Source: a virus
Taxonomy: Duplodnaviria; Caudoviricetes
Reading direction: 5' to 3' (one strand)
IMG/VR virus record: IMGVR_UViG_3300010352_000625
Location: 142,670 to 206,669 of that record
Length of the DNA stretch: 64,000 bases
Shown here piece by piece: positions 3,616-44,151 of the stretch. Position 1 is the stretch's first letter; the number at the start of each line of letters is the position of its first letter. Below the pieces are notes generated by a model. The model was not told the origin of the DNA. It saw only the letters and a list, made by a program, of their open reading frames with translations, and made no database searches. The position numbers were made by a program, and so were the translations under genes.

Positions 3616-3894
3616 TTATTCTTTTGGATCAGTTAATGAAAAATCATCATTATCTATAAAATGATCGATAACCATTTTACATCTTTTTAAATCATTCACA
3701 ACACTTTCTATCTCTTTGTATTCATAAGATGAGTTATCAACTCTAGGTTTTAAATCAATATCAAGAAAATGTCTTAAGCAATCTAATTGATTAACATACT
3801 CGCTAAGAACCTTTTTAACAAACTCAATTTGGCCTTCACTATCATATTCAGCTGAACTTAATATCACATCTAAGTCATTTGGTCCAATACTCAT
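3616..3894 (-). CDS. Hypothetical protein with PNDLD tag; paralog of 22459-22800 and of the 31364-33397 C-terminus
   Basis: MSIGPNDLDVIL; shared PRVD.SSYEY.E motif. Confidence 0.7.
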   Translation of the reverse strand: MSIGPNDLDVILSSAEYDSEGQIEFVKKVLSEYVNQLDCLRHFLDIDLKPRVDNSSYEYKEIESVVNDLKRCKMVIDHFIDNDDFSLTDPKE

Positions 3895-17087: not shown

Positions 17088-17477
17088 TTAATTTTCTCTA
17101 ATTCTTTTATGAATTATCAATTTTTCTTTTGGTATAATATCATGATACTCAAAAGAATATCCGCTGTTATCAATAATATTAGAATCTAGAAATAATTTAG
17201 ATTTATCTAAATCTTTTATATCTATTTTTAAGATAGTAATATCATCAAACAATTCGTCATTAATATCTTCATTATCTATACTCATAATAAAATCGTAAGC
17301 CATTTCAGCATCAATTGTTAAATACACTCTGTCATTTAGTGAATCTGACCAATTCAATTGGTTAGTTTTTCCACCTAGCCCATATTTTTTGATATTTTTC
17401 AAATTAGCTGTGAATGTGGCATGATATAAATATTCAACAATATTATCTAAATATAAATCTAATTCGCTTGGATTCAT
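17088..17477 (-). CDS. ADP-ribosyltransferase/Tpt1-like fold protein with PSELD tag
   Basis: LYHAT..NL..I...GL, VYLT, ILKID, IIP. Confidence 0.6.
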   Translation of the reverse strand: MNPSELDLYLDNIVEYLYHATFTANLKNIKKYGLGGKTNQLNWSDSLNDRVYLTIDAEMAYDFIMSIDNEDINDELFDDITILKIDIKDLDKSKLFLDSNIIDNSGYSFEYHDIIPKEKLIIHKRIREN

Positions 17478-18826: not shown

Positions 18827-19423
18827 TTATAACATTTTATTAATACATTTAATTTGATTATTATTAAATACTACATAAGATTTATTTTTATATTCAATAT
18901 CTCTATTTATAATTATACCATCGTACCCATCATATTTAATATTATTAACAAATTTATTCGCTATTTTTTTACATTGATTTGCAGTGAAACTTGAAGAAAC
19001 ATTAATTTCTTCAATATCAAAACCAATTTGGGCTCCAATATATGTTAATTCATCTGCTAAATCATTATTGTCTTGAAAATAATAAGGATTTTCAATTTTT
19101 AAAAAACAATATTTAGCAAAATCACCCCAAATTAATTCATCATTAAACCAATAACCAATATATGCTGTACTAGCATATCCTATAGAATTAGCATTATCAA
19201 TAGTATTTAAACCAAGTTTTTTTCTATTAAACTTTTTAAAATCATTATCACTGCTATGACATACTAATAATGGATTATTATTAGTATCAATTACTTTAGA
19301 ATTATTAAACCAAACTTTAAATTGTTTAGTATTTATTATTTTTTTAATATTATCATTATTATAATAATTATAATTTGATAGTATTATATCACAATCATTA
19401 GGTTTAAACATATTGTACACCAC
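18827..19423 (-). CDS. ART-PolyVal-like ADP-ribosyltransferase domain protein with KPNDCD tag
   Basis: FKVWF..SKV.D...PL...H; GYDGII; YVVF...QIK. Confidence 0.65.
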   Translation of the reverse strand: MVYNMFKPNDCDIILSNYNYYNNDNIKKIINTKQFKVWFNNSKVIDTNNNPLLVCHSSDNDFKKFNRKKLGLNTIDNANSIGYASTAYIGYWFNDELIWGDFAKYCFLKIENPYYFQDNNDLADELTYIGAQIGFDIEEINVSSSFTANQCKKIANKFVNNIKYDGYDGIIINRDIEYKNKSYVVFNNNQIKCINKML

Positions 19424-19454: not shown

Positions 19455-19901
19455 TTAATCTACTTTTTCAAACATTTCTTCTGGACCAGAAAATTTATTA
19501 AAAAATACATGTGGAACTAGATATTCGTCAACCTCGAAATCATATCCCATTATTCTGTTAGGACCTGCATATGTAAAAACAGTTCCTTCTGGAAAAAATA
19601 ACCATAATGCATTATCAATAATTTTAAAATATTTTGATATTAAATTTACATAATCCCATATTTCAGGGCTATAACTAGGACATTCATCAATTATATCACT
19701 AAACCGACCAAACGCCAAATCTTCCTTCAATGCATATTTATGCCCAAACTGCATAAATTGTTTTTTATGTGATGATGTTATAGTCAAATTTTTACTATTA
19801 TTATCATTATCTTTTTTAATACTATTAGACCAATTCTCTTTAGTAGTTTCGGCTAATAAAAAATCAATATCACTTGATTTTATATTTTTCATTATTATCA
19901 A
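19455..19901 (-). CDS. Hypothetical protein with KSSDID tag
   Basis: MKNIKSSDIDFLLAE. Confidence 0.6.
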   Translation of the reverse strand: MIIMKNIKSSDIDFLLAETTKENWSNSIKKDNDNNSKNLTITSSHKKQFMQFGHKYALKEDLAFGRFSDIIDECPSYSPEIWDYVNLISKYFKIIDNALWLFFPEGTVFTYAGPNRIMGYDFEVDEYLVPHVFFNKFSGPEEMFEKVD

Positions 19902-22458: not shown

Positions 22459-22800
22459 TTATTTTTCTCTATCAACTATTAAATTTAAAGTATTTTCATT
22501 TTCTATCAACTTATTAATAGTCTCAGCAGATACTCTCAAATTACTTATAATATCTTTTAACTCTCTATATTCATAAGATGAAGAATCAACTCTAGGTATT
22601 AAATATTTATTTATATATATATAACAACTATTAAGATATCCTATGCACTCCTTATATTTTTCAATTCTAATTTCTTTTTCCATTTCTTTCGCTTTTTCTT
22701 CTAATACTCTTGTAAATTCTTTTTTATTTTCGTCATCTGAGATATCTTTTACATAATTACTAATAATACTATTTAAATCATTTGGTTTAATATTTTTCAT
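22459..22800 (-). CDS. Hypothetical protein with KPNDLN tag
   Basis: MKNIKPNDLNSII; IPRVDSSSYEYRE. Confidence 0.7.
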   Translation of the reverse strand: MKNIKPNDLNSIISNYVKDISDDENKKEFTRVLEEKAKEMEKEIRIEKYKECIGYLNSCYIYINKYLIPRVDSSSYEYRELKDIISNLRVSAETINKLIENENTLNLIVDREK

Positions 22801-23652: not shown

Positions 23653-24120
23653 TTAAATTTTTATGTAGTCTACATGTTTAAATGGTTTTAACATTTCTTC
23701 TGATATGTGAACTGTATAATTATCATTTTGATCATATATAAAAGTTCTATCTAAAATATCTTTAATTGAAGAATAACGTTTTAACAATATATCTTTTAAC
23801 TCATGGTCTCCAATTAATTGTCTAAATTCATCGTATGATATATTCCAATCTTTAATATAAAAACCAAAAGTTACATCATCAATTTGACCATTATAATAAA
23901 TTTTAACTGTATCTTTAATTGGAATAGTGGTACCATCTTTAAATTGACCAACTATTTGTATTTTAGTTGAATCCCATATTTCATCATTAAATTGTCTGAT
24001 AATTTTAAAATATTTAGGTTTATTATCATAACTTTTGATATTTTTAACATAATCTATTAATCCTGCTTCTACACTAATAAATTTATCTAAATCATTTGGT
24101 TTAACCATGTATAATATCAT
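23653..24120 (-). CDS. Hypothetical protein with KPNDLD tag
   Basis: MVKPNDLDKFISVE. Confidence 0.65.
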   Translation of the reverse strand: MILYMVKPNDLDKFISVEAGLIDYVKNIKSYDNKPKYFKIIRQFNDEIWDSTKIQIVGQFKDGTTIPIKDTVKIYYNGQIDDVTFGFYIKDWNISYDEFRQLIGDHELKDILLKRYSSIKDILDRTFIYDQNDNYTVHISEEMLKPFKHVDYIKI

Positions 24121-28564: not shown

Positions 28565-29089
28565 TTAAACAAGTATTCCTTCAAAATCACTATTCAATCT
28601 ATGATATTTCTTAATCTCAGGACTATCAGACCCATATTTCTCAGCTATAGTTGAATATCCTTCATATATCATATCTGGTTTTCTAAGTTTAATTTTAACT
28701 GTGCCATCATCGTTGTGTGTCGGCAAACCTTTCTTTTCAAATATTTCAATCTGATTCAATGCACCATCAATCACAGCCTGTTTTTCTAAATCAGTAATAT
28801 CTTCCCAATATTCAGTATCAAGCTGTATTTCAATATCAATTTTTTTAAGCAGTCTGTCTTTTGCGTTATTATATTTTACTTTATAAGGAAGATTCTTAAA
28901 TGTTGGCAATACTGCACCACTCTTATCATCTTCTGTAGTTACATATATCAAAGCAAATCTGATATTATAACCATTAAGATTCTGATAATCTTCTGTTTGC
29001 AACATTTCATTCAATATTTCCCTGTCTTCTGTACTTGCATATTCATATCTAATATTTGTACTCAATTTATCTCCTCCATTAATATTCAT
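28565..29089 (-). CDS. Phage metallopeptidase-like domain, probably inactive
   Basis: W..I....KQAVID and LRKPD...Y..I.EKYG pattern, but HExxH replaced by GALNQ. Confidence 0.5.
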   Translation of the reverse strand: MNINGGDKLSTNIRYEYASTEDREILNEMLQTEDYQNLNGYNIRFALIYVTTEDDKSGAVLPTFKNLPYKVKYNNAKDRLLKKIDIEIQLDTEYWEDITDLEKQAVIDGALNQIEIFEKKGLPTHNDDGTVKIKLRKPDMIYEGYSTIAEKYGSDSPEIKKYHRLNSDFEGILV

Positions 29090-29513: not shown

Positions 29514-29852
29514 ATGTCTTCTATTGCATGGGATAATTTTTTAAAACCAAATTTTAAAACTGAATTTTTTCTGAGAAACATTCGTTCATTTGACCTCGAC
29601 ACAAAATACAACTATGAAGAATTTTTAGACAATCCTAAATCTTATTCTATGGTTTTTGCTGATACATACGATAGTAACTATATTGATGATGATATTGATA
29701 TTGATGCTATAACACTAATTAATATGAGAGAACAACAGAACATTATCAATAATATCGATACTAATTTAGAACAACAATTTAATGACCAAATGGTCAGTAC
29801 TAATGATGAATATTATATCGAAGATGATGAATATGAAGAAGATGAATATTAA
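29514..29852 (+). CDS. Highly acidic protein on the opposite strand
   Basis: AGGAG RBS; D/E-rich C-terminus. Confidence 0.7.
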   Translation: MSSIAWDNFLKPNFKTEFFLRNIRSFDLDTKYNYEEFLDNPKSYSMVFADTYDSNYIDDDIDIDAITLINMREQQNIINNIDTNLEQQFNDQMVSTNDEYYIEDDEYEEDEY

Positions 29853-30544
29853 TCTCTCGCTTCATATTTATAATAATCATCCACAATACTAGTTAGAAAC
29901 TTGACATCTAAATTATCTGGCAAATTAGATTCAGCAATTCTATACAAATTTTCTTTACATAAATAATTTGAATATTCAAGCAACATCTCAAAATCGATGT
30001 ATCCATTTTTGATATCAGTTGGTTTGTAAGCCCCTTCTAATGGAAACTCAATTCTACCGATATCAATTAGCTGTCTAATCTCTAAGTTTAATCTATAAGC
30101 ATTAGCTAGATATTTACAAGCTTTATTAAAATCAGTTAAATTAAGAATTTGCTTTAAATTGCTTTCAGCACAATACACAAAAGAAGTGATTCTTTTGCTG
30201 ATAAATCTATAATTATTGAATAATACTCTTTCCTTAAAGAATCTACTCTCATTAATTCTAACAGATTCTTTATTAACAAACAACATTTCAGTACAAGCAA
30301 TATCACCTTTAGCTAACATGTTAAAAAATTTACATAGTGAATAATAGCCATATTCAATTGTATCTTTATCTGATTTTTCATTATTATTTTTATTTCTGAA
30401 ATTTTTAGTATCAATAGCTAGTTCTGTACCATTCAATACATTACGTTTCTCTGGAGCATAAACACCTTTAATATCTAAATCACTTTCTGGGGTATGCGTA
30501 CCGTATAATCTAGACCCATGTACTACTTCATATAATACATACAT
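29849..30544 (-). CDS. DNA polymerase beta-superfamily nucleotidyltransferase
   Basis: GSRLYGT..PESDLD.KG. Confidence 0.85.
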   Translation of the reverse strand: MYVLYEVVHGSRLYGTHTPESDLDIKGVYAPEKRNVLNGTELAIDTKNFRNKNNNEKSDKDTIEYGYYSLCKFFNMLAKGDIACTEMLFVNKESVRINESRFFKERVLFNNYRFISKRITSFVYCAESNLKQILNLTDFNKACKYLANAYRLNLEIRQLIDIGRIEFPLEGAYKPTDIKNGYIDFEMLLEYSNYLCKENLYRIAESNLPDNLDVKFLTSIVDDYYKYEARD

Positions 30545-30998: not shown

Positions 30999-31114
30999 TC
31001 CTTTCTATTTAATATATATTATATCATATATATAATGATTTGTCAATCAAAGATCATAAAAAAATGAATATACGAGTATATTCATTTTAAATTTTATTAA
31101 TTATTATTTAATTT

Positions 31115-31363: not shown

Positions 31364-33397
31364 TTATCTTTTTTCTATATTATTGACAAAATATTTGTAA
31401 TAAACTTGTTTATTTTCTTCTAAATCATCAGTTAATTTAATCAATTCCAGATATTCATTAGATGTTTTGTCATATCTTGGTATCATTTCTTTTTTTATAA
31501 AATTTATAATATTACAAAAATATATTGCATGATCACGTAAGTCACTAGAATACTTTACTTCATTATTCATTATATTATCCATATCCATCATTTTCTGTAA
31601 TTTAGATATCATATCTTCATATTCCGCACCAATAGAATCAAAATCTAACCCAATATCAGACATATTTTTTCTTATTTCTTGTTCTAATTTATTATGTTTC
31701 TGTAATGCATTATTATCATGATATTCTTCAGATTTCCACCATAATTCATTTAATATTTTTAATTTATCAATAATATCTTTTATTTTTCCTTCTCTATCAT
31801 CATTATCAATTATATTAGATTCTTCTAGTGCATTGTTATTACTTAATAGTTTTTCGGCAACTTTGTCTAAAGCAGAATTAATTTCATCTACTGATAAATA
31901 TTTTTTCCATTTATTATATAATCTCAATTTCAGTCCATCAGGAAGTAATTTAAATATTTTTAACCCACTACCATCAAAAGTTTTATTTTTATTGCCTTTA
32001 TTCATGTATTTATAAAAATATTTTTCATCAATTTTCTTTTTTTCATTATTAACTGCATTATATAATTCTTGAAAATCTACATCAGACATTTTCATATTAT
32101 CATTATCAATTATATTAGATTCTTCTACTGCTATTTCTTTTTTGTTGGGGTTATATAATTTATCTGCTCCAGATTCTCTAACTATAACAGCATCACCAGA
32201 CGGATTTATATGAATCATATAAGACATACTATTACTTATTCCCTTGTAGCCGTGGTATTCAATACCATCAATAACTTCAGGAGTATTTAATCTCATAACT
32301 TCATCTAAATATATTCTATGTTTAAAATAATCAACATAAGGTCTAGTTTCATCACTATCTGAATCTTCGACATATTCATATTCTATAGGTATATAATAAT
32401 CTTCAATATCTTCTGGTACAGTATTACTTACTATAGTACTTTCTTCTAGTACATTTCTGATAATTTCATCTAACAACGCACTCACGCCCTCACTATATGC
32501 GTTAATCTCCTCATCTATGGCGATTTCTTTTATAGTTTGAAAAATAGAAGGAAATTCGTTGATTAAAATTTCATATGTTGTTGCTCCCAACATGTGTTTT
32601 TCTTTTTCCTCCTTTATCCGCATCTTTAAGGTTTTCTTTTGATCCCCTGCATAGTCCAATGCGAGGCTGTCGAGGTCTTGAACGCAATCTGTCCAGTCCC
32701 ACGCCGAAAACGTGGTGATGCAGAGGTCAGTACCGTTCCACGTGGATTCAGGTTCACTGTAATTTCCCACATATGTCCAAGTGTACAATTTTCCGCTTGG
32801 CTCAATCGCTAGTCCCTTGTGTACGTTCTGGTTAGTGCCTTCACACTCCCGATATAAGTCAACCATTTTTTCTTCTATTGCATCGCGGTTATCTTCCAAA
32901 ACTTTTTTCCAGTTTGTTTCATCATCATTATCAATTATATTAGATTCTTCCAATATATTGTCCATATCAGAAGGTTCTATTTCTATATTATCTTCAGGTT
33001 CAATTATTCCAGTAACTTTAAATTTTTTAACTAATGCAAAAAATTCTCTAGTAAGCAAATTCCAATATAATTTATCAACTTGTTCATCTGAATACTTTGA
33101 AGATTCTTCACTACTCTGGTCAAACCAATATTCTATTTTTGCTCTCATATCAAAATAAGAATAATCAAACTGTAAAGGCAGTCCTTTTAACCATTCTATA
33201 AATGCATTATATTCTCCAATTTGTCTAATCTTCCAACTAAATTGGTCTTTAAATTCAGCATAAACACAATTAAGTGCAGAAGCTGTATCAGTATAATTTT
33301 CTATCTCATATTCTTCTGCATATTGTTGTGCCGCTTCTATAATTTCTTTTCTGATTCTTTCTTTTACTTCTCTTTGCATTGATATTTTAATACCCAT
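31364..33397 (-). CDS. Modular polyprotein with repeated (L/V)EESNIIDND linkers
   Basis: Three exact 27-bp repeats and one diverged copy separate unrelated modules; internal EPSDMDNILEE tag. Confidence 0.75.
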   Translation of the reverse strand: MGIKISMQREVKERIRKEIIEAAQQYAEEYEIENYTDTASALNCVYAEFKDQFSWKIRQIGEYNAFIEWLKGLPLQFDYSYFDMRAKIEYWFDQSSEESSKYSDEQVDKLYWNLLTREFFALVKKFKVTGIIEPEDNIEIEPSDMDNILEESNIIDNDDETNWKKVLEDNRDAIEEKMVDLYRECEGTNQNVHKGLAIEPSGKLYTWTYVGNYSEPESTWNGTDLCITTFSAWDWTDCVQDLDSLALDYAGDQKKTLKMRIKEEKEKHMLGATTYEILINEFPSIFQTIKEIAIDEEINAYSEGVSALLDEIIRNVLEESTIVSNTVPEDIEDYYIPIEYEYVEDSDSDETRPYVDYFKHRIYLDEVMRLNTPEVIDGIEYHGYKGISNSMSYMIHINPSGDAVIVRESGADKLYNPNKKEIAVEESNIIDNDNMKMSDVDFQELYNAVNNEKKKIDEKYFYKYMNKGNKNKTFDGSGLKIFKLLPDGLKLRLYNKWKKYLSVDEINSALDKVAEKLLSNNNALEESNIIDNDDREGKIKDIIDKLKILNELWWKSEEYHDNNALQKHNKLEQEIRKNMSDIGLDFDSIGAEYEDMISKLQKMMDMDNIMNNEVKYSSDLRDHAIYFCNIINFIKKEMIPRYDKTSNEYLELIKLTDDLEENKQVYYKYFVNNIEKR
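31799..32950. repeat. 27-bp direct repeat ATCATTATCAATTATATTAGATTCTTC
   Basis: Copies at 31799-31825, 32099-32125, 32924-32950, and 40974-41000; diverged copy near 32423-32449. Confidence 0.9.
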
Positions 33398-33428
33398 ATT
33401 TTATTAACTCCTTTGAATATATTATAAT

Positions 33429-33773
33429 TTAATAACCTTCTAAATTAATAACTTTATAAATTGCTTTACCTAAATTTACATAATTTTTTTCCCAATAATC
33501 GGTTATTTTACTTAACAATTCTGATGCTTCTTGTGTCTGTAAAATATAAGAATTATCAGTGTTAAAATCTATAGCAATAAATGGTGTACTCCAATTAATA
33601 GTAATTTCACCTACTATATTATTATCTTTATCTTTATAAATATAGATTTCGTCTTTCCCTTGTTTTTTAATTTCATATTTTAATTTTGAATTTATATTTG
33701 ACCCATCTACTAAAAAAGTATTCATATCCATTGGTTTTATATTTCTATTCATTATATCAACTCCAATATTCAA
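33429..33773 (-). CDS. Hypothetical protein with KPMDMN tag
   Basis: MNRNIKPMDMNTFL. Confidence 0.65.
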   Translation of the reverse strand: MNIGVDIMNRNIKPMDMNTFLVDGSNINSKLKYEIKKQGKDEIYIYKDKDNNIVGEITINWSTPFIAIDFNTDNSYILQTQEASELLSKITDYWEKNYVNLGKAIYKVINLEGY

Positions 33774-35433: not shown

Positions 35434-35511
35434 TCAATAAATATATTATATCATTATTTAGAGATAAAAGCAAGTTGTCCTAAAGTATACAAATTTTATT
35501 TTGTTTAATAT

Positions 35512-36343: not shown

Positions 36344-36619
36344 TTAAATAAATGGCATATAAATTTCATCTTTGAACTCATCGACAATCTTTTTTGCAAG
36401 TTTACAGGTCTGTTCGTTTCTCAGGTCATACCAACCTTTATCGTACATTTCAGCCCAAAGCTTCATACACTCCATCATTACTGCCATAGAACTCTGCTGA
36501 AGTGTTCTATGTGTATTATAACAGATCTTTTCAGCAAATTCCTTGTGTCTACTAGTATCAAAACTATTTACAAAATCTGAAAAAGTATTTGCCATTTCTT
36601 CGCCTGTCATTTTAGCCAT
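36344..36619 (-). CDS. Hypothetical early protein
   Basis: HRTLQQS...D.RNE; AGGAG RBS. Confidence 0.65.
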   Translation of the reverse strand: MAKMTGEEMANTFSDFVNSFDTSRHKEFAEKICYNTHRTLQQSSMAVMMECMKLWAEMYDKGWYDLRNEQTCKLAKKIVDEFKDEIYMPFI

Positions 36620-37075
36620 TTTGTTTTTTATCTCCTTCAGTTGTAATCAGTATTGTTATCTCTCTCAATCAATAAATATATTATATCACATTTTAGAGAT
36701 AAACACAAGTCTTTTTATTTGTAACAATATTAATAAATATATACATAAAGTTTATATTTATTTAATTGGTTTTCTAGCTTTTCTATTTTGTGTATGATAA
36801 TAATTTCTATAATAACTAATACTACGAAGATTGAATATCACCAAAAAAAAAACAGTTATTAACATGCATATAATTATAATAAACATTTATTCACCAAATT
36901 TCTCAATACATTCAGGAAGTCTCTGATAAGCATGTATGTAACGATTAAACAAAGTACATATATAATCCAAATGTTCTAGTTCAAAATAATGACAATTAGT
37001 ACATTTTTTACCACAAGGAATTTTAACTTTAACATATATAAATTTATCAGACATTAAAAAATCACACTTTTTTAC

Positions 37076-38471
37076 TAAAATAGACAGAAAGATTACTGCC
37101 TTTAGGTGGTAATATGAATGTCTATAAATTTTAACTTCATATAAGTTAAAAATATATAAACAAAATGTAATTTAATAATAAAGAAGGTGAATCTATTTTG
37201 ACTGCAAGTACTGTTTCTAAAAATCAAAATATTAAAAAAACTATGAAAGAAACTATGACTAGAAGAACTAGCCAGTCTTGTGGTGTTTATAAAGTCAAAA
37301 TAGACGAATCTAGACTTTCTAAAAAACAAAAAGAGCAAATTAAAATGATATTTGTTGAAGCAAAATGGTTTTATAATAATATTTTAAGTTGGTCTGAAAA
37401 TCACGATATTAATGATTTTGATACTAAAACTAAATTTGTTAATATTTTAAATAAAAATAAAGAAATTGAAACTAGAGAATTAAAAAATATTGGTTCTCAA
37501 ATGAAACAAGCAATACATACTGGCGTTATATCTGCTATTAAAACTTTGTCAACTTTAAAGAAAAAGGGGCATAAAGTTGGAAAACTTAAATATTTGTCGG
37601 ATTATAAATCTATTAATTTAAAACAGTTTGGAACTACATATCAAATACTTAATACTAAATATATGAAGATTCAAAACATATCTGGTAAAGTCAAAGTCAA
37701 CGGTTTGGATCAATTTATTAATGACCCTGATATTGAATTTGCTAATGCTAAGATTCTAAATACTCCGTCTGGATATTATGTTGCAATAACTACTTATCGA
37801 TATAATGACGATTTGGCACTTAAATCATATTTAGGTTCTGAAATTGGTATTGATATGGGAATCAAAGATTCAATCATTCTTTCTAATGGTGAAAAATTTA
37901 AAGCATCTATTGAAGAAACTGAACATTTAAAATGTTTGCAAAGAAAACTAGCGAGACAGAAAAAAGGTTCTAACAATAGAAGAAAAACTATTTTCAAGAT
38001 TCAGAAAGAATATCAAAAAATATCAAATCGAAAAAATGATATTTCAAATAAAATCACAAGTCATATTTTATCATATGAGCATATCTATATGCAAGACGAG
38101 ATGATATCTGGTTGGCATAAAGGATTATTTGGAAAACAGGTTCAACATTCTATTTTAGGCCGAGTAAAAGCTAAATTAATAAATCATTCTAGAGTTGAAG
38201 TGTTAGATCGTTCAGTTCCAACAACTAAATATTGTCCTTGTTGTGGCAACATCAATAAAAATATCACCTTGGCTGACAGAACTTATATTTGCCCAACATG
38301 CGGTTATCAAGAAGACCGAGATATTCATTCTGCTAAAAATATGATATTGATGACTAAAATAATTAAAAATCAAATACCTAGGGAACCTAGGGAATTCAAG
38401 CCTGTGGAGACTATGAACCTTGTAGCCGTTGAAGCAGGAAGATTACAGTCTTTAGACTGTAATTAGTTCAC
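37076..38471 (+). mobile_element. IS200/IS605-family element carrying tnpB only
   Basis: TTAC at 37072-37075; AAAG then hairpin ATTACTGCC-TTTA-GGTGGTAAT (left end); GAAG then hairpin ATTACAGTC-TTTA-GACTGTAAT and terminal TTCAC (right end). Confidence 0.9.
37198..38466 (+). CDS. tnpB: RNA-guided endonuclease TnpB
   Basis: GIDMGIK (RuvC-I), MQDE (atypical RuvC-II), CPCC..CPTC zinc finger, DRDIHSAKN (RuvC-III). Confidence 0.93.
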   Translation: MTASTVSKNQNIKKTMKETMTRRTSQSCGVYKVKIDESRLSKKQKEQIKMIFVEAKWFYNNILSWSENHDINDFDTKTKFVNILNKNKEIETRELKNIGSQMKQAIHTGVISAIKTLSTLKKKGHKVGKLKYLSDYKSINLKQFGTTYQILNTKYMKIQNISGKVKVNGLDQFINDPDIEFANAKILNTPSGYYVAITTYRYNDDLALKSYLGSEIGIDMGIKDSIILSNGEKFKASIEETEHLKCLQRKLARQKKGSNNRRKTIFKIQKEYQKISNRKNDISNKITSHILSYEHIYMQDEMISGWHKGLFGKQVQHSILGRVKAKLINHSRVEVLDRSVPTTKYCPCCGNINKNITLADRTYICPTCGYQEDRDIHSAKNMILMTKIIKNQIPREPREFKPVETMNLVAVEAGRLQSLDCN

Positions 38472-39027: not shown

Positions 39028-40131
39028 TTATTCATTTTTTAAAAGAAACTTATTAGATATTGATTTAAAACTTATTCTAACTTTATTATTTTCTGGTTTA
39101 GCAAGTCTCCAGACTATACCTTCACGTTCAATATTACTGTTGTTGACTACACTCTTACCTTCAGCTAATTTAAGTATTTCATTAATATCATTAGGTAATA
39201 TAAAATCTCTATAAATAATTGGTACAGATTTCAACCCAATTTCTTTAGTAATTCTTTCTACTTCATATTGACTATAATATTCTTGTGTATCAATATCAAA
39301 AATATCAAATATATATATATCTATACCTTTTATCTTATATTTATTACCTTGAATACCTTCACCACATAATTCACCTTGTAGTGCTATGTTTTTGTTTTTA
39401 AAGTATTTTCTCATTTTACTTTCTATATCTTGTTCTTTAATTACTTGCCAGTATTTACCACCATCATCTTCATCAAGTTGGTTATTTCTTGAACAAACAT
39501 AAAATTTATTATCTTTAAGAAATATTGTCTCAGAAGAACCATCTATTTTTTCAGTACCAACAACTTTCATACCAGCAATTTCGTTAATCAAATTTCTAAG
39601 ATTCTGTACACGTTCTTCATCTGTCTTATATATAAAAACAGGGAAACCTTTTTTAATAATAGTATTAGTAAACAATATCTTAGCTAATTTGTTAAAATAT
39701 CTAAACATAAAGCTAAGTACAACATCAGGTATATATTTTTTAACCCATTTCTTATTGGTAATTACTTTTCTCTTAGCATTATTATCTTCATCTGGTTCAT
39801 ATTTAGTTATACCAATGATTTCAGTAACATCATCATCAATATTATAATTACCTTTAGGAAGATAACTAATCGGCAATACCAGTCCCTGACTTATTTGACC
39901 ACGTAGCTTAATTGTTCTAACTCTATATTTTCTATCTTTAAGAAATTCAAACTCTGGTGCAGGTGGTAAAATACTATCTATTTCACAATAGATAATCTTA
40001 TCCCCAGCTTTAAAATTATCTTTCTTAGCTACAACACATTGCCAACCATTAATAATAGCTAATTCTATTGCATCAGCATTTTCAATTGGTTTAATTTCTA
40101 ATATTTCTTGTATACTTGCTAGTTTTCTCAT
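39028..40131 (-). CDS. ATP-dependent RNA ligase (Rnl2/DRB0094 family)
   Basis: MRKLASIQ OB-like N-terminus; EKIDGS; QGE; EGIV; FKSIS..FLLK. Confidence 0.9.
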   Translation of the reverse strand: MRKLASIQEILEIKPIENADAIELAIINGWQCVVAKKDNFKAGDKIIYCEIDSILPPAPEFEFLKDRKYRVRTIKLRGQISQGLVLPISYLPKGNYNIDDDVTEIIGITKYEPDEDNNAKRKVITNKKWVKKYIPDVVLSFMFRYFNKLAKILFTNTIIKKGFPVFIYKTDEERVQNLRNLINEIAGMKVVGTEKIDGSSETIFLKDNKFYVCSRNNQLDEDDGGKYWQVIKEQDIESKMRKYFKNKNIALQGELCGEGIQGNKYKIKGIDIYIFDIFDIDTQEYYSQYEVERITKEIGLKSVPIIYRDFILPNDINEILKLAEGKSVVNNSNIEREGIVWRLAKPENNKVRISFKSISNKFLLKNE

Positions 40132-40892: not shown

Positions 40893-40920
40893 GGTATTTC
40901 CTCCTCAATTTCCGTAAAAC

Positions 40921-41053
40921 TCATTTAATATTTTTAATTTATCAATAATATCTTTTATTTTTCCTTCTCTATCATCATTATCAATTATATTAGATTCTTC
41001 TAGTGCATTGTTATTACTTAATAGTTTTTCGGCAACTTTGTCTAAAGCAGAAT
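40921..41053. repeat. 133-bp exact copy of 31746-31878
   Basis: Direct sequence identity; forms the chimeric ORF 40905-41090. Confidence 0.9.
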
Positions 41054-41387: not shown

Positions 41388-42059
41388 TTAAACCAAACTT
41401 TCCACTTTAAAATTTGAATTTTTACATTTATTGCAGGTACATCTTGAAATAATATCAAGAGTTTTACATTTGCGATAAAAATAACTCTTAGTCCCACAGG
41501 TTTCACATGTAACTATATATTTGGGTGTCTTAGGAACTACTTCAGAATCTTCTACACTCTCATCAACTTTATAGTAAGTAGATATATTATATTTAGGATA
41601 ATGTTTATTGATTAGCCCAGCATATCTCTTGAAGTTAGGACCATGATTATTACAGCCTGGGATTGTATGTATAAGTTCGTGAGCCATAGTCTTTTCTATT
41701 TCAGAATTATCTCCAACCAACTTTTTATTAATAGCTACATAATTAATTTTAGAGACATTTCTATCAGCAAGAAACGTACTCATGGGATTAATAAAAGTGT
41801 AAGTAACTCCTCTTACTCTCTTAGATCTAGTCTTCAGTTCCCCAACTTTTGTAATATCTTTTATTGGGATAGGGACACCTATTTTAATAAGTTCTTTACT
41901 TACTGTATTAAATATCTCAGTAATTGAACTATCCTTAATTATATTCTTTTCTATATTTTCTTTAGATTTTTTAACTTTAGCCATATTTTTTACCCCCAAA
42001 AAATAATTTGTAATATCAACTAAATATATTATATCACTATTTGGAGATAAAGTCAACAA
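41388..42059 (-). CDS. SprT-like zinc metalloprotease (probable start at MAKV, ~41984)
   Basis: HELIH....NHG..F; C-terminal CxxC..CxxC. Confidence 0.85.
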   Translation of the reverse strand: MLTLSPNSDIIYLVDITNYFLGVKNMAKVKKSKENIEKNIIKDSSITEIFNTVSKELIKIGVPIPIKDITKVGELKTRSKRVRGVTYTFINPMSTFLADRNVSKINYVAINKKLVGDNSEIEKTMAHELIHTIPGCNNHGPNFKRYAGLINKHYPKYNISTYYKVDESVEDSEVVPKTPKYIVTCETCGTKSYFYRKCKTLDIISRCTCNKCKNSNFKVESLV

Positions 42060-42543: not shown

Positions 42544-43764
42544 CTACCCATTTGATTTAAAATTGTATACAGGCTTGATAATATTGACTACATCAACAGT
42601 ATCAACGATTGACTCCTGTATCTCAGCTAAACCTCTGTACGCCATTGGAGCCTCGTCTACAGTGTGATTATTAACTGATGTAGTGTATACATCTTTCATT
42701 GACTTAATATATTCTATCATGTTAATTGTTTCTTTTGCCTCGGTTCTTGACATAATTCTTCCAGCCCCATGTGGTGCTGAACAATTCCAATCTTCGTTGC
42801 CTTTACCTATACCAATTATTGAACCAGTAGCCATATTTATTGGTATTACTACTCTTTCACCTTTTTTAGCTGATATAGCACCTTTGCGTACTATTTTAGA
42901 TTCAATATCGATATAATTATGTATTGACTCAAACTGCTCCAATACATATCCAGACAATTTAAACTCTGATATTATTTTGTTAGCTATAGCATGTCGATTA
43001 CCTACTGCATATTCCTGGGCTATAGCTATATCATGTAAATAATCATTAAAATCATCGTCAGTAATATACTTTGATTTTAAAGCTATTTTGTTATACTTAG
43101 CTTTTATTTTCTCTAATTCTGATGATATCATTGAATAATTATTTTCTTTTTTAAGTTTATCTACAGTTTTATTTATTTCCTTAATCATTCTATCTTTCAT
43201 TTTATCCATATTACCATTAATCATTATATTATAATAATGTTTAGCAATCTGAACCCCTAAGTTTCTGGAGCCAGTATGTATAACTAAATACTTATAATTA
43301 TCCTCATCAACAGCTATTTCTATAAAATGATTACCGCCGCCTAAAGTACCTAAAGATTTTACTATTCTATCTATATTATCTATTTTATCAAAACATTTTA
43401 AATTAGACAACATTGACATAACTTTATTTTTTATTTCATTTTCAACTTTAGTATATGTTCCATTACCATTTGGTATGCAATTGCGTATAAACTCGTCTAT
43501 ATCATGATAATTCAATTCTATAGACTTATCTATTTTAGTTACATTAACGCCACAACCCAAATCAACACCAACTATATTTGGGTCAATTTTATTCTCAATT
43601 TCACCAGTAAAGCCTATGACACAACCTATACCAATATGTACATCGGGCATGATACGAACTTTCTTATCATCAAATATCCCAGTATCAAGCATGTTTTCTA
43701 TCTGCTCTATTACTTTATAATCATAAGTTTTTGCAAATATTTTTACGTCATAATCTTTAAACAT
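42544..43764 (-). CDS. rtcB: RtcB 3'-phosphate RNA ligase
   Basis: MPDVH; VGVDLGCG; GTLGGGNHFIE; HNY; HGAGR; DEAP.AY. Confidence 0.95.
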   Translation of the reverse strand: MFKDYDVKIFAKTYDYKVIEQIENMLDTGIFDDKKVRIMPDVHIGIGCVIGFTGEIENKIDPNIVGVDLGCGVNVTKIDKSIELNYHDIDEFIRNCIPNGNGTYTKVENEIKNKVMSMLSNLKCFDKIDNIDRIVKSLGTLGGGNHFIEIAVDEDNYKYLVIHTGSRNLGVQIAKHYYNIMINGNMDKMKDRMIKEINKTVDKLKKENNYSMISSELEKIKAKYNKIALKSKYITDDDFNDYLHDIAIAQEYAVGNRHAIANKIISEFKLSGYVLEQFESIHNYIDIESKIVRKGAISAKKGERVVIPINMATGSIIGIGKGNEDWNCSAPHGAGRIMSRTEAKETINMIEYIKSMKDVYTTSVNNHTVDEAPMAYRGLAEIQESIVDTVDVVNIIKPVYNFKSNG

Positions 43765-43893: not shown

Positions 43894-44151
43894 TTAAATT
43901 AATTCATCTAAATCGTCAGGTTTAAAATCATCTCCAGACTTTTCTAATTCAGCTTCCATAGCATCTAATCCTATATAATAATTAGAAAACTCATCTAGAT
44001 GATCTTTAGCAATTATCTTAGCTATATTTTCGTTTTTACTATGTTCTTTTTCTACTTCTATACCTATTTTTAATTGTTCCTCATCATAATCATCATCAGG
44101 TCTAGTGTCTTCACCTTCTAGAATATACTTATAACCATGTTTATTTTCCAA
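43894..44151 (-). CDS. DUF5661-like protein with C-terminal KPDDLD tag
   Basis: QL..G..VE.EH...IA.DHL.E...YY..L; ends FKPDDLDELI. Confidence 0.7.
   Translation of the reverse strand: MENKHGYKYILEGEDTRPDDDYDEEQLKIGIEVEKEHSKNENIAKIIAKDHLDEFSNYYIGLDAMEAELEKSGDDFKPDDLDELI

Follow-up and report, generated by a model that had tools for sequence, protein, structure and literature searches.

Polymorphic toxin loci, among them those of CdiA (VENN) and Rhs proteins, carry conserved junction motifs together with orphan cassettes. In the polyvalent proteins of invasive elements, several unrelated conflict-type domains share one polypeptide in combinatorial architectures; Iyer, Burroughs, Anand, de Souza and Aravind (2017) likened these proteins to polyproteins, suspected that cassettes recombine and that peptidases release the domains, and drew the analogy with polymorphic toxin loci (PMC5512222). 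That paper describes no repeated, standardised connector, and the word 'linker' is absent from it. In phage T4, short N-terminal propeptides target the internal proteins and Alt, which are injected (PMC9026906, PMC5694885), and IPI is an injected anti-restriction protein (PMC9026906). Here we describe a 677-amino-acid (aa) polyprotein encoded in the final 64 kb of a 206,669-bp IMG/VR virus record (25% GC), in which unrelated modules are joined in frame by a repeated connector. This 64-kb stretch is referred to as the window, and coordinates are window positions unless marked as genome positions; those of the main features are collected in Table 1.

We propose, with moderate confidence, that the protein is a polyvalent-type multi-effector protein, encoded among the clustered counter-defence genes of an uncultured T4-like phage of 207 kb, and that the connector is an in-frame swap point. 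By analogy, the locus would work like a polyvalent protein endowed with the junction logic of polymorphic toxins and a leader like that of T4 internal proteins, and by their defining features it cannot be shown to belong to any of these groups. With polyvalent proteins it appears to share the placing of several unrelated conflict-type domains on one polypeptide of an invasive element, in combinatorial architectures, and a neighbourhood containing ART-PolyVal, ArdA, SprT-like and PhageMetallopep genes. Polyvalent proteins comprise 2–15 distinct domains; this one has six unrelated modules, of which M1 and M2 are predicted as independent folds, and it is phage-encoded, on a virus record with Gp23 and Peptidase_S77. 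It differs in that no module could be matched to the published vocabulary of recurrent polyvalent and anti-defence domains, such as ART-PolyVal, MPTase, ArdC-N and methylases, which is represented only in neighbouring genes (orthologs add DUF7249), in that the chain is small (677 aa) with no embedded peptidase, and in that the shuffling of modules within a population can here be observed directly at a single syntenic locus.

The polyprotein open reading frame (ORF) starts with ATG, and the identical 677-aa protein is recorded in the database on three contigs. Its modules (M1 to M4, M5a and M5b) are mutually unrelated, the lowest pairwise BLASTP E value being 0.13, in agreement with a sequence-only reading of the window that had described unrelated modules separated by an exact 27-bp repeat. 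That repeat, GAAGAATCTAATATAATTGATAATGAT, encodes EESNIIDND; the three exact copies reported there were recovered, as was a diverged copy (LEESTIVSN) placed near 32430, and the first repeat directly follows a PSDMD tag, in full PSDMDNIL. The module described as GC-richer (about 32460–32915) corresponds to M2, which has a GC content of 0.41 and a third-position GC content (GC3) of 0.446, versus a GC3 of 0.13–0.15 in the remaining modules. Two claims held in part. The module said to begin with its own Met (MKMSD) does read NMKMSD, but that Met has no Shine–Dalgarno (SD)-like motif before it, and reading the sequence revealed no internal SD-like start 5′ of any module Met in the polyprotein. The last module, said to resemble the stand-alone genes 3616–3894 and 22459–22800, is really two: the resemblance belongs to M5b, and M5a is separate.

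The 27-bp repeat had no match in 100 dinucleotide shuffles with up to three mismatches allowed (chance expectation 0), and identity at the connectors stretches to 37–41 nucleotides (nt) at 88–95%. Under genome codon usage, reuse of all nine EESNIIDND codons has P = 0.029 for one further copy and P = 8e-4 for two; the DNA identity of the repeat therefore lies above that given by codon bias, though not overwhelmingly. A fourth exact copy, overlooked in the sequence-only reading, lies at 40974–41000 on the minus strand, in an orphan ORF created around a 136-bp duplicate of a polyprotein junction (40918–41053, 99.3% identical to 31743–31878). Such a displaced orphan fragment with junction homology, and a junction peptide and DNA that delimit swappable modules, are features shared with polymorphic toxin loci. 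Neither in the chain nor directly downstream of it did a toxin, immunity or secretion family turn up, and the analogy is one of mechanism only; the chain also has several junctions rather than one, and the genome is of a lytic-type phage. The off-frame stop density of the connector, at the 89th–95th percentile of the gene, was dropped as a candidate feature, being ordinary for Asn and Asp codons in AT-rich DNA.

The evidence for exchange at the connectors comes from orthologs. The comparison set comprised database proteins P0002–P0010 and loci on ten metagenome contigs (L008–L017) from ten different datasets, in which M1 is 75–86% identical. The locus is ordered ArdA, DUF932, a 70-aa gene, a 90-aa gene, a tagged 114-aa gene, the polyprotein, KTSC, RlaP and the PhageMetallopep homolog. 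Across the ten contigs the flanking genes are 79–97% identical in amino acid sequence, except RlaP (45%), and the conserved syntenic flanks therefore identify the L008–L017 loci as positional orthologs. The ORF at the locus is unbroken in all ten (232–575 aa), and M1 is present from its start in seven. Between these conserved flanks the content is not collinear, as it would be in a fixed protein: about 20 sequences display at least 11 module architectures, namely M1-DUF7249, M1-M8-DUF7249, M1-M3-DUF7249, M1-M7-M3-DUF7249, M1-M3-M9′, M1-M3-M5a-M9′, M1-M9, M1-(M3 head)-M10, M1-M3-(M9 head)-M10-M13, M1-M12-M5a-(M9 head)-M10-M13 and the window's own M1-M2-M3-M4-M5a-M5b. M1 is first in every ortholog, and the majority of ortholog junctions fall at the same connector. 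In some orthologs connectors abut (AVEESNMIDND-NALEES...), the pattern expected once a cassette between them is lost. The longest orthologs (L014:6001–7728, 575 aa; L016:1765–3288, 507 aa) end in M10, which is Cys-rich (CCNCICKNC), and M13; in both, M10 and M13 are joined without a connector, showing that linker-less fusions persist as well.

Nucleotide identity within these loci is discordant from module to module. Over the ten loci it is 82–91% for M1, 94–97% for M3 (with the M3 of L008, L012, L015, L016 and L017) and 96–99.5% for M5a, the highest value being with the M5a of L015, while none of the ten has M2, M4 or M5b. These discordant identities therefore indicate recent cassette exchange within the phage population. 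The proposal in the sequence-only reading of an expandable array, with the repeat as recombination and capture point, is borne out by the number of architectures, by junctions that lie mostly at the connector, by stand-alone homologs of the modules and by the compositionally foreign M2. Because the module strings of the orthologs vary at a conserved locus, we regard the role of the connector as a recombination joint for gene capture as strongly supported by comparative sequence data. That the long ORF is artefactual, or arose by fusion of neighbouring genes and is now decaying without a function of its own, is very improbable: one ortholog class does fuse truncated M3 heads to M10, like deletion scars, but the same protein is found on three contigs, uninterrupted ORFs occupy the locus on ten independent metagenome contigs, the M1 and M2 models have predicted local distance difference test (pLDDT) scores of 93–96, and a canonical SD is present.

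Each module was also searched for separately, and every one has stand-alone homologs. An exhaustive HMMER search over 1.8 billion representative proteins returned separate stand-alone homologs for M1 (about 90 representatives, 110–170 aa), M2 (about 16, of about 160 aa, 53–69% identical, with P0014, P0011 and P0013 the closest), M3 (71–158 aa), M4 (74 aa) and M5a (74–77 aa). M5b matches window gene 3616–3894 (E 9e-6), which in turn matches 22459–22800 (E 4e-11). When the three are aligned, KMMDMDNIM inside the polyprotein lies opposite the N-terminal IGPNDLDVIL and IKPNDLNSII of these two genes, and because it lines up with their N-terminal tags we interpret M5b as a paralog that was fused to the chain with its leader retained. 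Whole-chain tblastn against phage and plasmid collections gave no match, IMG/VR scans with the M1 protein, the M1 alignment and the connector DNA pattern gave nothing beyond this genome, and a GTDB genome scan with the M1 alignment gave no relative.

The tag itself recurs across the genome. The pattern P-x-(D/E)-(L/I/M/C)-(D/N)-x-(F/I/L/V/Y)-(L/I/V) occurs 14 times in 593 ORFs, and at residues 3–14 in at least nine otherwise unrelated small proteins, typically as (I/F)KP(S/N)D(L/M/I)Dxx(I/L). One of the tagged proteins (18827–19423) is an ART-PolyVal ADP-ribosyltransferase. The codons of the tag vary, which identifies it as a protein-level signal; it may serve for packaging, for docking or as a degron. 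In the polyprotein it is internal, before connector 1, with a degenerate recurrence at M5a/M5b, and orthologs read TPYDMDDYL-DNDNALEES at the tag position. The tag is also C-terminal in a DUF5661 protein and in the distant M1 homolog P0015. This distribution suggests an origin of the chain in small tagged genes that fused head to tail, their leaders turning into joints.

At this locus a conserved helical anchor, M1, thus precedes a changing series of small modules that are unrelated to one another. The array would have grown by in-frame fusion of tagged stand-alone genes, their N-terminal leaders turning internal, and the M5a/M5b junction would be one such internalised leader. The 27–41-bp connector identity would offer a homology patch for phage homologous recombination, which would swap, delete, duplicate and capture cassettes with the frame kept; M2 may be the latest capture, from a GC-richer source. 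At the protein level, the connector would most likely be a place where processing sets the modules free.

The connector motif was surveyed at 25 sites in 11 genes, of which one (LEENKQ, within window M5b) is a chance match. Its core, encoded by (GCA/GTA/ATA)(CTA/GTA/TTG) GAA GAA and read as [A/V/I][L/V]EE followed by [S/N], is nearly invariant in DNA, and is followed by a module-specific leader in four flavours: the generic SN(I/M)IDND (TCT AAT ATR ATT GAT AAT GAT); STIVSNT (AGT ACT ATA GTA AGT AAT ACT), in every case before M3; STALVSD (TCA ACA GCA CTA GTA TCT GAT), in every case before DUF7249; and NISVSD (AAC ATT AGT GTG AGT GAT), before M8. The connector Leu is encoded by CTA or TTG and the Ser by TCT, AGT or TCA. 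Since both residues are kept through non-identical codons, the LEES peptide is conserved beyond DNA identity, and the connector is probably also read at the protein level, besides its role as a homology patch.

Cutting of the connectors by some protease is about as likely as not. In eukaryotic RNA virus polyproteins, too, functional units lie between short recognisable sites in one translation product; here, in contrast to a fixed replicative set, the modules are exchangeable accessories, and cleavage is hypothetical. An uncleaved, beads-on-a-string multidomain protein, whose connectors are flexible spacers reflecting common descent and recombination, seems to us somewhat unlikely. Many polyvalent proteins are delivered or active unprocessed (PMC5512222), the near-invariant GAA GAA and GCA CTA codons are as homogenisation predicts, and the M1 model, unstructured past residue 125, fits a spacer. 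A spacer, however, needs no fixed LEES, and the Leu (CTA/TTG) and Ser (TCT/AGT/TCA) are kept across the four connector flavours, which speaks for selection acting on the peptide.

The sequence-only reading had named a protease. In that model the PSDMD-type tag targets the chain to the prohead core, the S77 protease cuts (L/V)-E-E|S, and the effectors are injected with the DNA. The genome is of the T4-like type and encodes both a gp21-type Peptidase_S77 (genome 38091–38786; E 1.5e-17, 60.5 bits against a cut-off of 27), whose homologs all carry PF03420, and a Gp23 capsid protein (E 1.6e-52). T4 gp21 cleaves after L/I-x-E, and SPN3US and phiKZ-type enzymes after A/S/G-x-E, with A-x-E given for SPN3US gp245 (PMC9026906, PMC5694885); the connector holds both A-L-E and L-E-E and so fits the published motifs, and alignment of the capsid protein (genome 40607–42076; L007:1327–2796) with mature T4 gp23* would put the expected cut near V-L-E39|N. 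The tagged ART-PolyVal protein is reminiscent of packaged Alt, and the locus shares with the T4 internal proteins and Alt a set of many small unrelated accessory proteins with a common short leader, alongside T4-type head genes with an S77 protease and a connector that fits L/I-x-E. In T4, however, each internal protein has a gene of its own and an N-terminal capsid-targeting sequence, a propeptide of 10–19 residues ending in L/I-x-E, whereas here there is a chain, its leader differs in sequence (KPxDxDxxL) and can be internal or C-terminal, and the genes lie among consensus early-type promoters. The x-x-E motifs are too common to be diagnostic. Several proteins have the tag inside the chain or at the C-terminus, and it is missing from the polyprotein N-terminus (MGIKISMQREVKE), where V-K-E13 falls inside a predicted helix, the L-E-E and A-L-E motifs being internal. 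Stand-alone M2 and M5a homologs lack both tag and connector. A complex prediction for the S77 protease with residues 126–172, covering tag and connector, scored 0.00 and counts neither way. Beside the protease and capsid genes, an acidic scaffold-like protein (genome 39068–40546) contains N-V-V-E-E-S, which resembles the connector.

Expression timing also bears on packaging, since sigma-70-promoter clusters of the kind typical for pre-late genes contain the polyprotein gene and almost every tagged gene. Genome-wide there are about 30 perfect TTGACA-N17-TATAAT promoters, mostly with a TG extension and co-oriented with small-gene clusters; none lies within the head module, and two, at 31046 and 29132, lie just downstream of the polyprotein. 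They are presumably phage early promoters. Upstream of DUF932 and of gene 36344–36619 there is a second conserved, promoter-like element, about 40 nt long and with an extended −10 (TGATATAAT); the TGCTTTTA-like box upstream of this −10 may recall T4 MotA-dependent middle promoters. The unit from ArdA to KTSC thus looks as if it is transcribed before the late genes by host RNA polymerase, which would express the polyprotein gene together with ArdA, DUF932 and KTSC. This early-type context lowers the prior for prohead-protease packaging. We regard that idea as plausible in kind and the model as a whole as unlikely; cutting of the connectors by the S77 protease is likewise rather doubtful. A dual-role variant, in which the connector DNA is a swap patch for co-infecting phages, the peptide [A/V]-L-E-E|S is a gp21-type cut site and the tagged precursor loads a changeable anti-defence set into the capsid, is also unlikely; if true, it would constitute a 'poly-internal-protein', a way of delivering proteins that is not known to have been described in phages.

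It is quite unlikely that a host protease or a metallopeptidase encoded by the phage cuts the connectors in the cytoplasm at an early stage of infection. Release of domains by peptidases has been predicted for polyvalent proteins with metallopeptidase (MPTase) domains (PMC5512222). A SprT-like protein with an intact HELIH (41388–42059), which adjoins the orphan junction copy, is the only intact co-encoded alternative peptidase, and the PhageMetallopep (PF18894) homolog (28565–29089, minus strand) has its own perfect promoter. The latter, however, has HExxH nowhere in its sequence and is thus probably inactive, and neither peptidase belongs to the chain.

With regard to what the modules do, we place them, probably, among counter-defence proteins on account of their surroundings. 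The polyprotein neighbourhood contains ArdA, DUF932, KTSC, RlaP, PhageMetallopep, SprT-like, ART-PolyVal, RNA ligase, RtcB and DUF6876 genes and an inserted TnpB, a repertoire like that of islands for anti-restriction and RNA repair and of the polyvalent proteins (PMC5512222). Modelled separately, M1 forms a six-helix bundle whose structure is lost after residue 125, and M2 an alpha+beta fold whose long C-terminal helix reaches the next connector. Look-alikes of M1 in BFVD are uncharacterised phage proteins exclusively, one of them in Bacillus phage PBC2; a PDB counterpart was not found for M1 (Foldseek best E 1.8; VIA best Z 4.3), and M2 had no convincing match (Foldseek best E 0.28; VIA best Z 4.6). 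Profile searches with M3 and M5a against PDB sequences gave no match. Pfam gave none on the polyprotein chain and only sub-threshold matches on 20 module homologs, PHROGs returned solely phrog_11100 for M1, and the ESM Atlas gave no usable lead (Atlas model pLDDT 0.49). Two M5a homologs, P0023 and P0024, match the H-NS N-terminal oligomerisation domain PF22470 below the cut-off (E 6e-4 and 4e-3), a weak lead by which M5a could interfere with H-NS-like silencers.

Several observations weigh against the proposal of a counter-defence protein with swappable modules. The Pfam, PHROGs, PDB sequence and fold searches of the modules yielded nothing above noise, and because they gave no module function, the counter-defence role is drawn from the neighbourhood alone. 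Some junctions lie off the connector (M3 head/M10 in L010 and L011; M9 head/M10 and M10/M13 in L014 and L016), from which it follows that illegitimate fusion contributes too. Part of the conservation of the connector core could be due to recombination that homogenises it, and not to selection on the peptide. No strong promoter was found directly upstream of the polyprotein ORF, so that the timing depends on the distribution of promoters across the cluster. Nor does the T4 late motif TATAAATA discriminate late from early genes, being useless for timing in a genome of 25% GC: it occurs 127 times, against 150–218 for same-composition controls, and is absent from the 90 nt upstream of four head-module genes (major capsid protein, protease, 82-aa ORF and acidic 473-aa gene).

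Two further groups of genes were observed in the surrounding cluster. A TnpB-type gene (37198–38466, plus strand), with OrfB_IS605 and a Cas12f1-like TNB domain, lies in opposite orientation within the minus-strand early cluster, upstream of the ArdA–polyprotein unit. An RNA-repair set on the minus strand, comprising the RlaP nucleotidyltransferase (29849–30544), a PHA02142-OB/RNA ligase (39028–40131) and RtcB (42544–43764), is found among the anti-restriction genes and probably counters anticodon-nuclease defences.

Table 1. Features of the polyprotein locus, tagged genes and promoter-like elements (window coordinates unless stated).
Feature	Residues	Coordinates	Strand	Remarks
Polyprotein ORF P0001, 677 aa		31364–33397	−	ORF translation
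Shine–Dalgarno AAGGAG		33408–33413	−	10 nt 5′ of the polyprotein ATG; upstream sequence read directly
M1	1–135	32993–33397	−	N-terminal anchor; six-helix bundle; phrog_11100; homologs, model pLDDT 93
Internal tag PSDMDNIL	142–149	32951–32974	−	Form P-x-D-(L/M/I)-D-x-x-(L/I); motif scan
Connector 1	150–158	32924–32950	−	Exact 27-bp repeat, EESNIIDND
M2	159–315	32453–32923	−	Alpha+beta; GC3 0.446; homologs, model pLDDT 95.9
Connector 2	317–325	32423–32449	−	Diverged, LEESTIVSN; Ser is AGT, not TCT
M3	326–423	32129–32422	−	Stand-alone homologs P0012, P0032, P0060
Connector 3		32099–32125	−	Exact 27-bp repeat
M4	434–523	31829–32098	−	Starts NMKMSDVDF; homolog P0022, 74 aa, 83%
Connector 4		31799–31825	−	Exact 27-bp repeat
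M5a	534–602	31592–31798	−	Helical; stand-alone homologs 74–77 aa
Tag-like junction KMMDMDNIM	603–611	31565–31591	−	Aligns with N-terminal tags of 3616–3894 and 22459–22800
M5b	612–677	31367–31564	−	Paralog of stand-alone tagged genes 3616–3894 and 22459–22800
Orphan ORF, 61 aa		40905–41090	−	Copy of M4-tail/connector/M5a-head junction; contains fourth exact repeat
Genes with N-terminal tag		3616–3894, 17088–17477, 18827–19423, 19455–19901, 22459–22800, 23653–24120, 33429–33773, 49841–50398
Gene with C-terminal tag		43894–44151
Further tagged genes		genome 56704–57309, 25802–25942
Perfect promoters		46432, 43825, 42543, 31046, 29132, 22376, 20187, 15979, 9364, 228	−	TTGACA-N17-TATAAT
Second promoter-like element		about 35440–35480, 36680–36720	−	...CTTG(C/T)(T/G)TTTATCTCTAAA..TGATATAATATATTTATTGA

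Read as a polyvalent-type protein with a swap-point connector, the locus provides a natural, population-level case of a phage protein put together in frame in 'plug-and-play' fashion, in which one anchor and one standard connector serve at least 12 interchangeable modules amid anti-restriction and RNA-repair genes. M1–M5b, M7–M13 and DUF7249 become candidate counter-defence proteins, and the array can serve as a concrete model of diversification in polyvalent proteins. Should the connector turn out to be cut by the prohead protease, the T4 internal-protein paradigm would come to include precursors with several cargoes.

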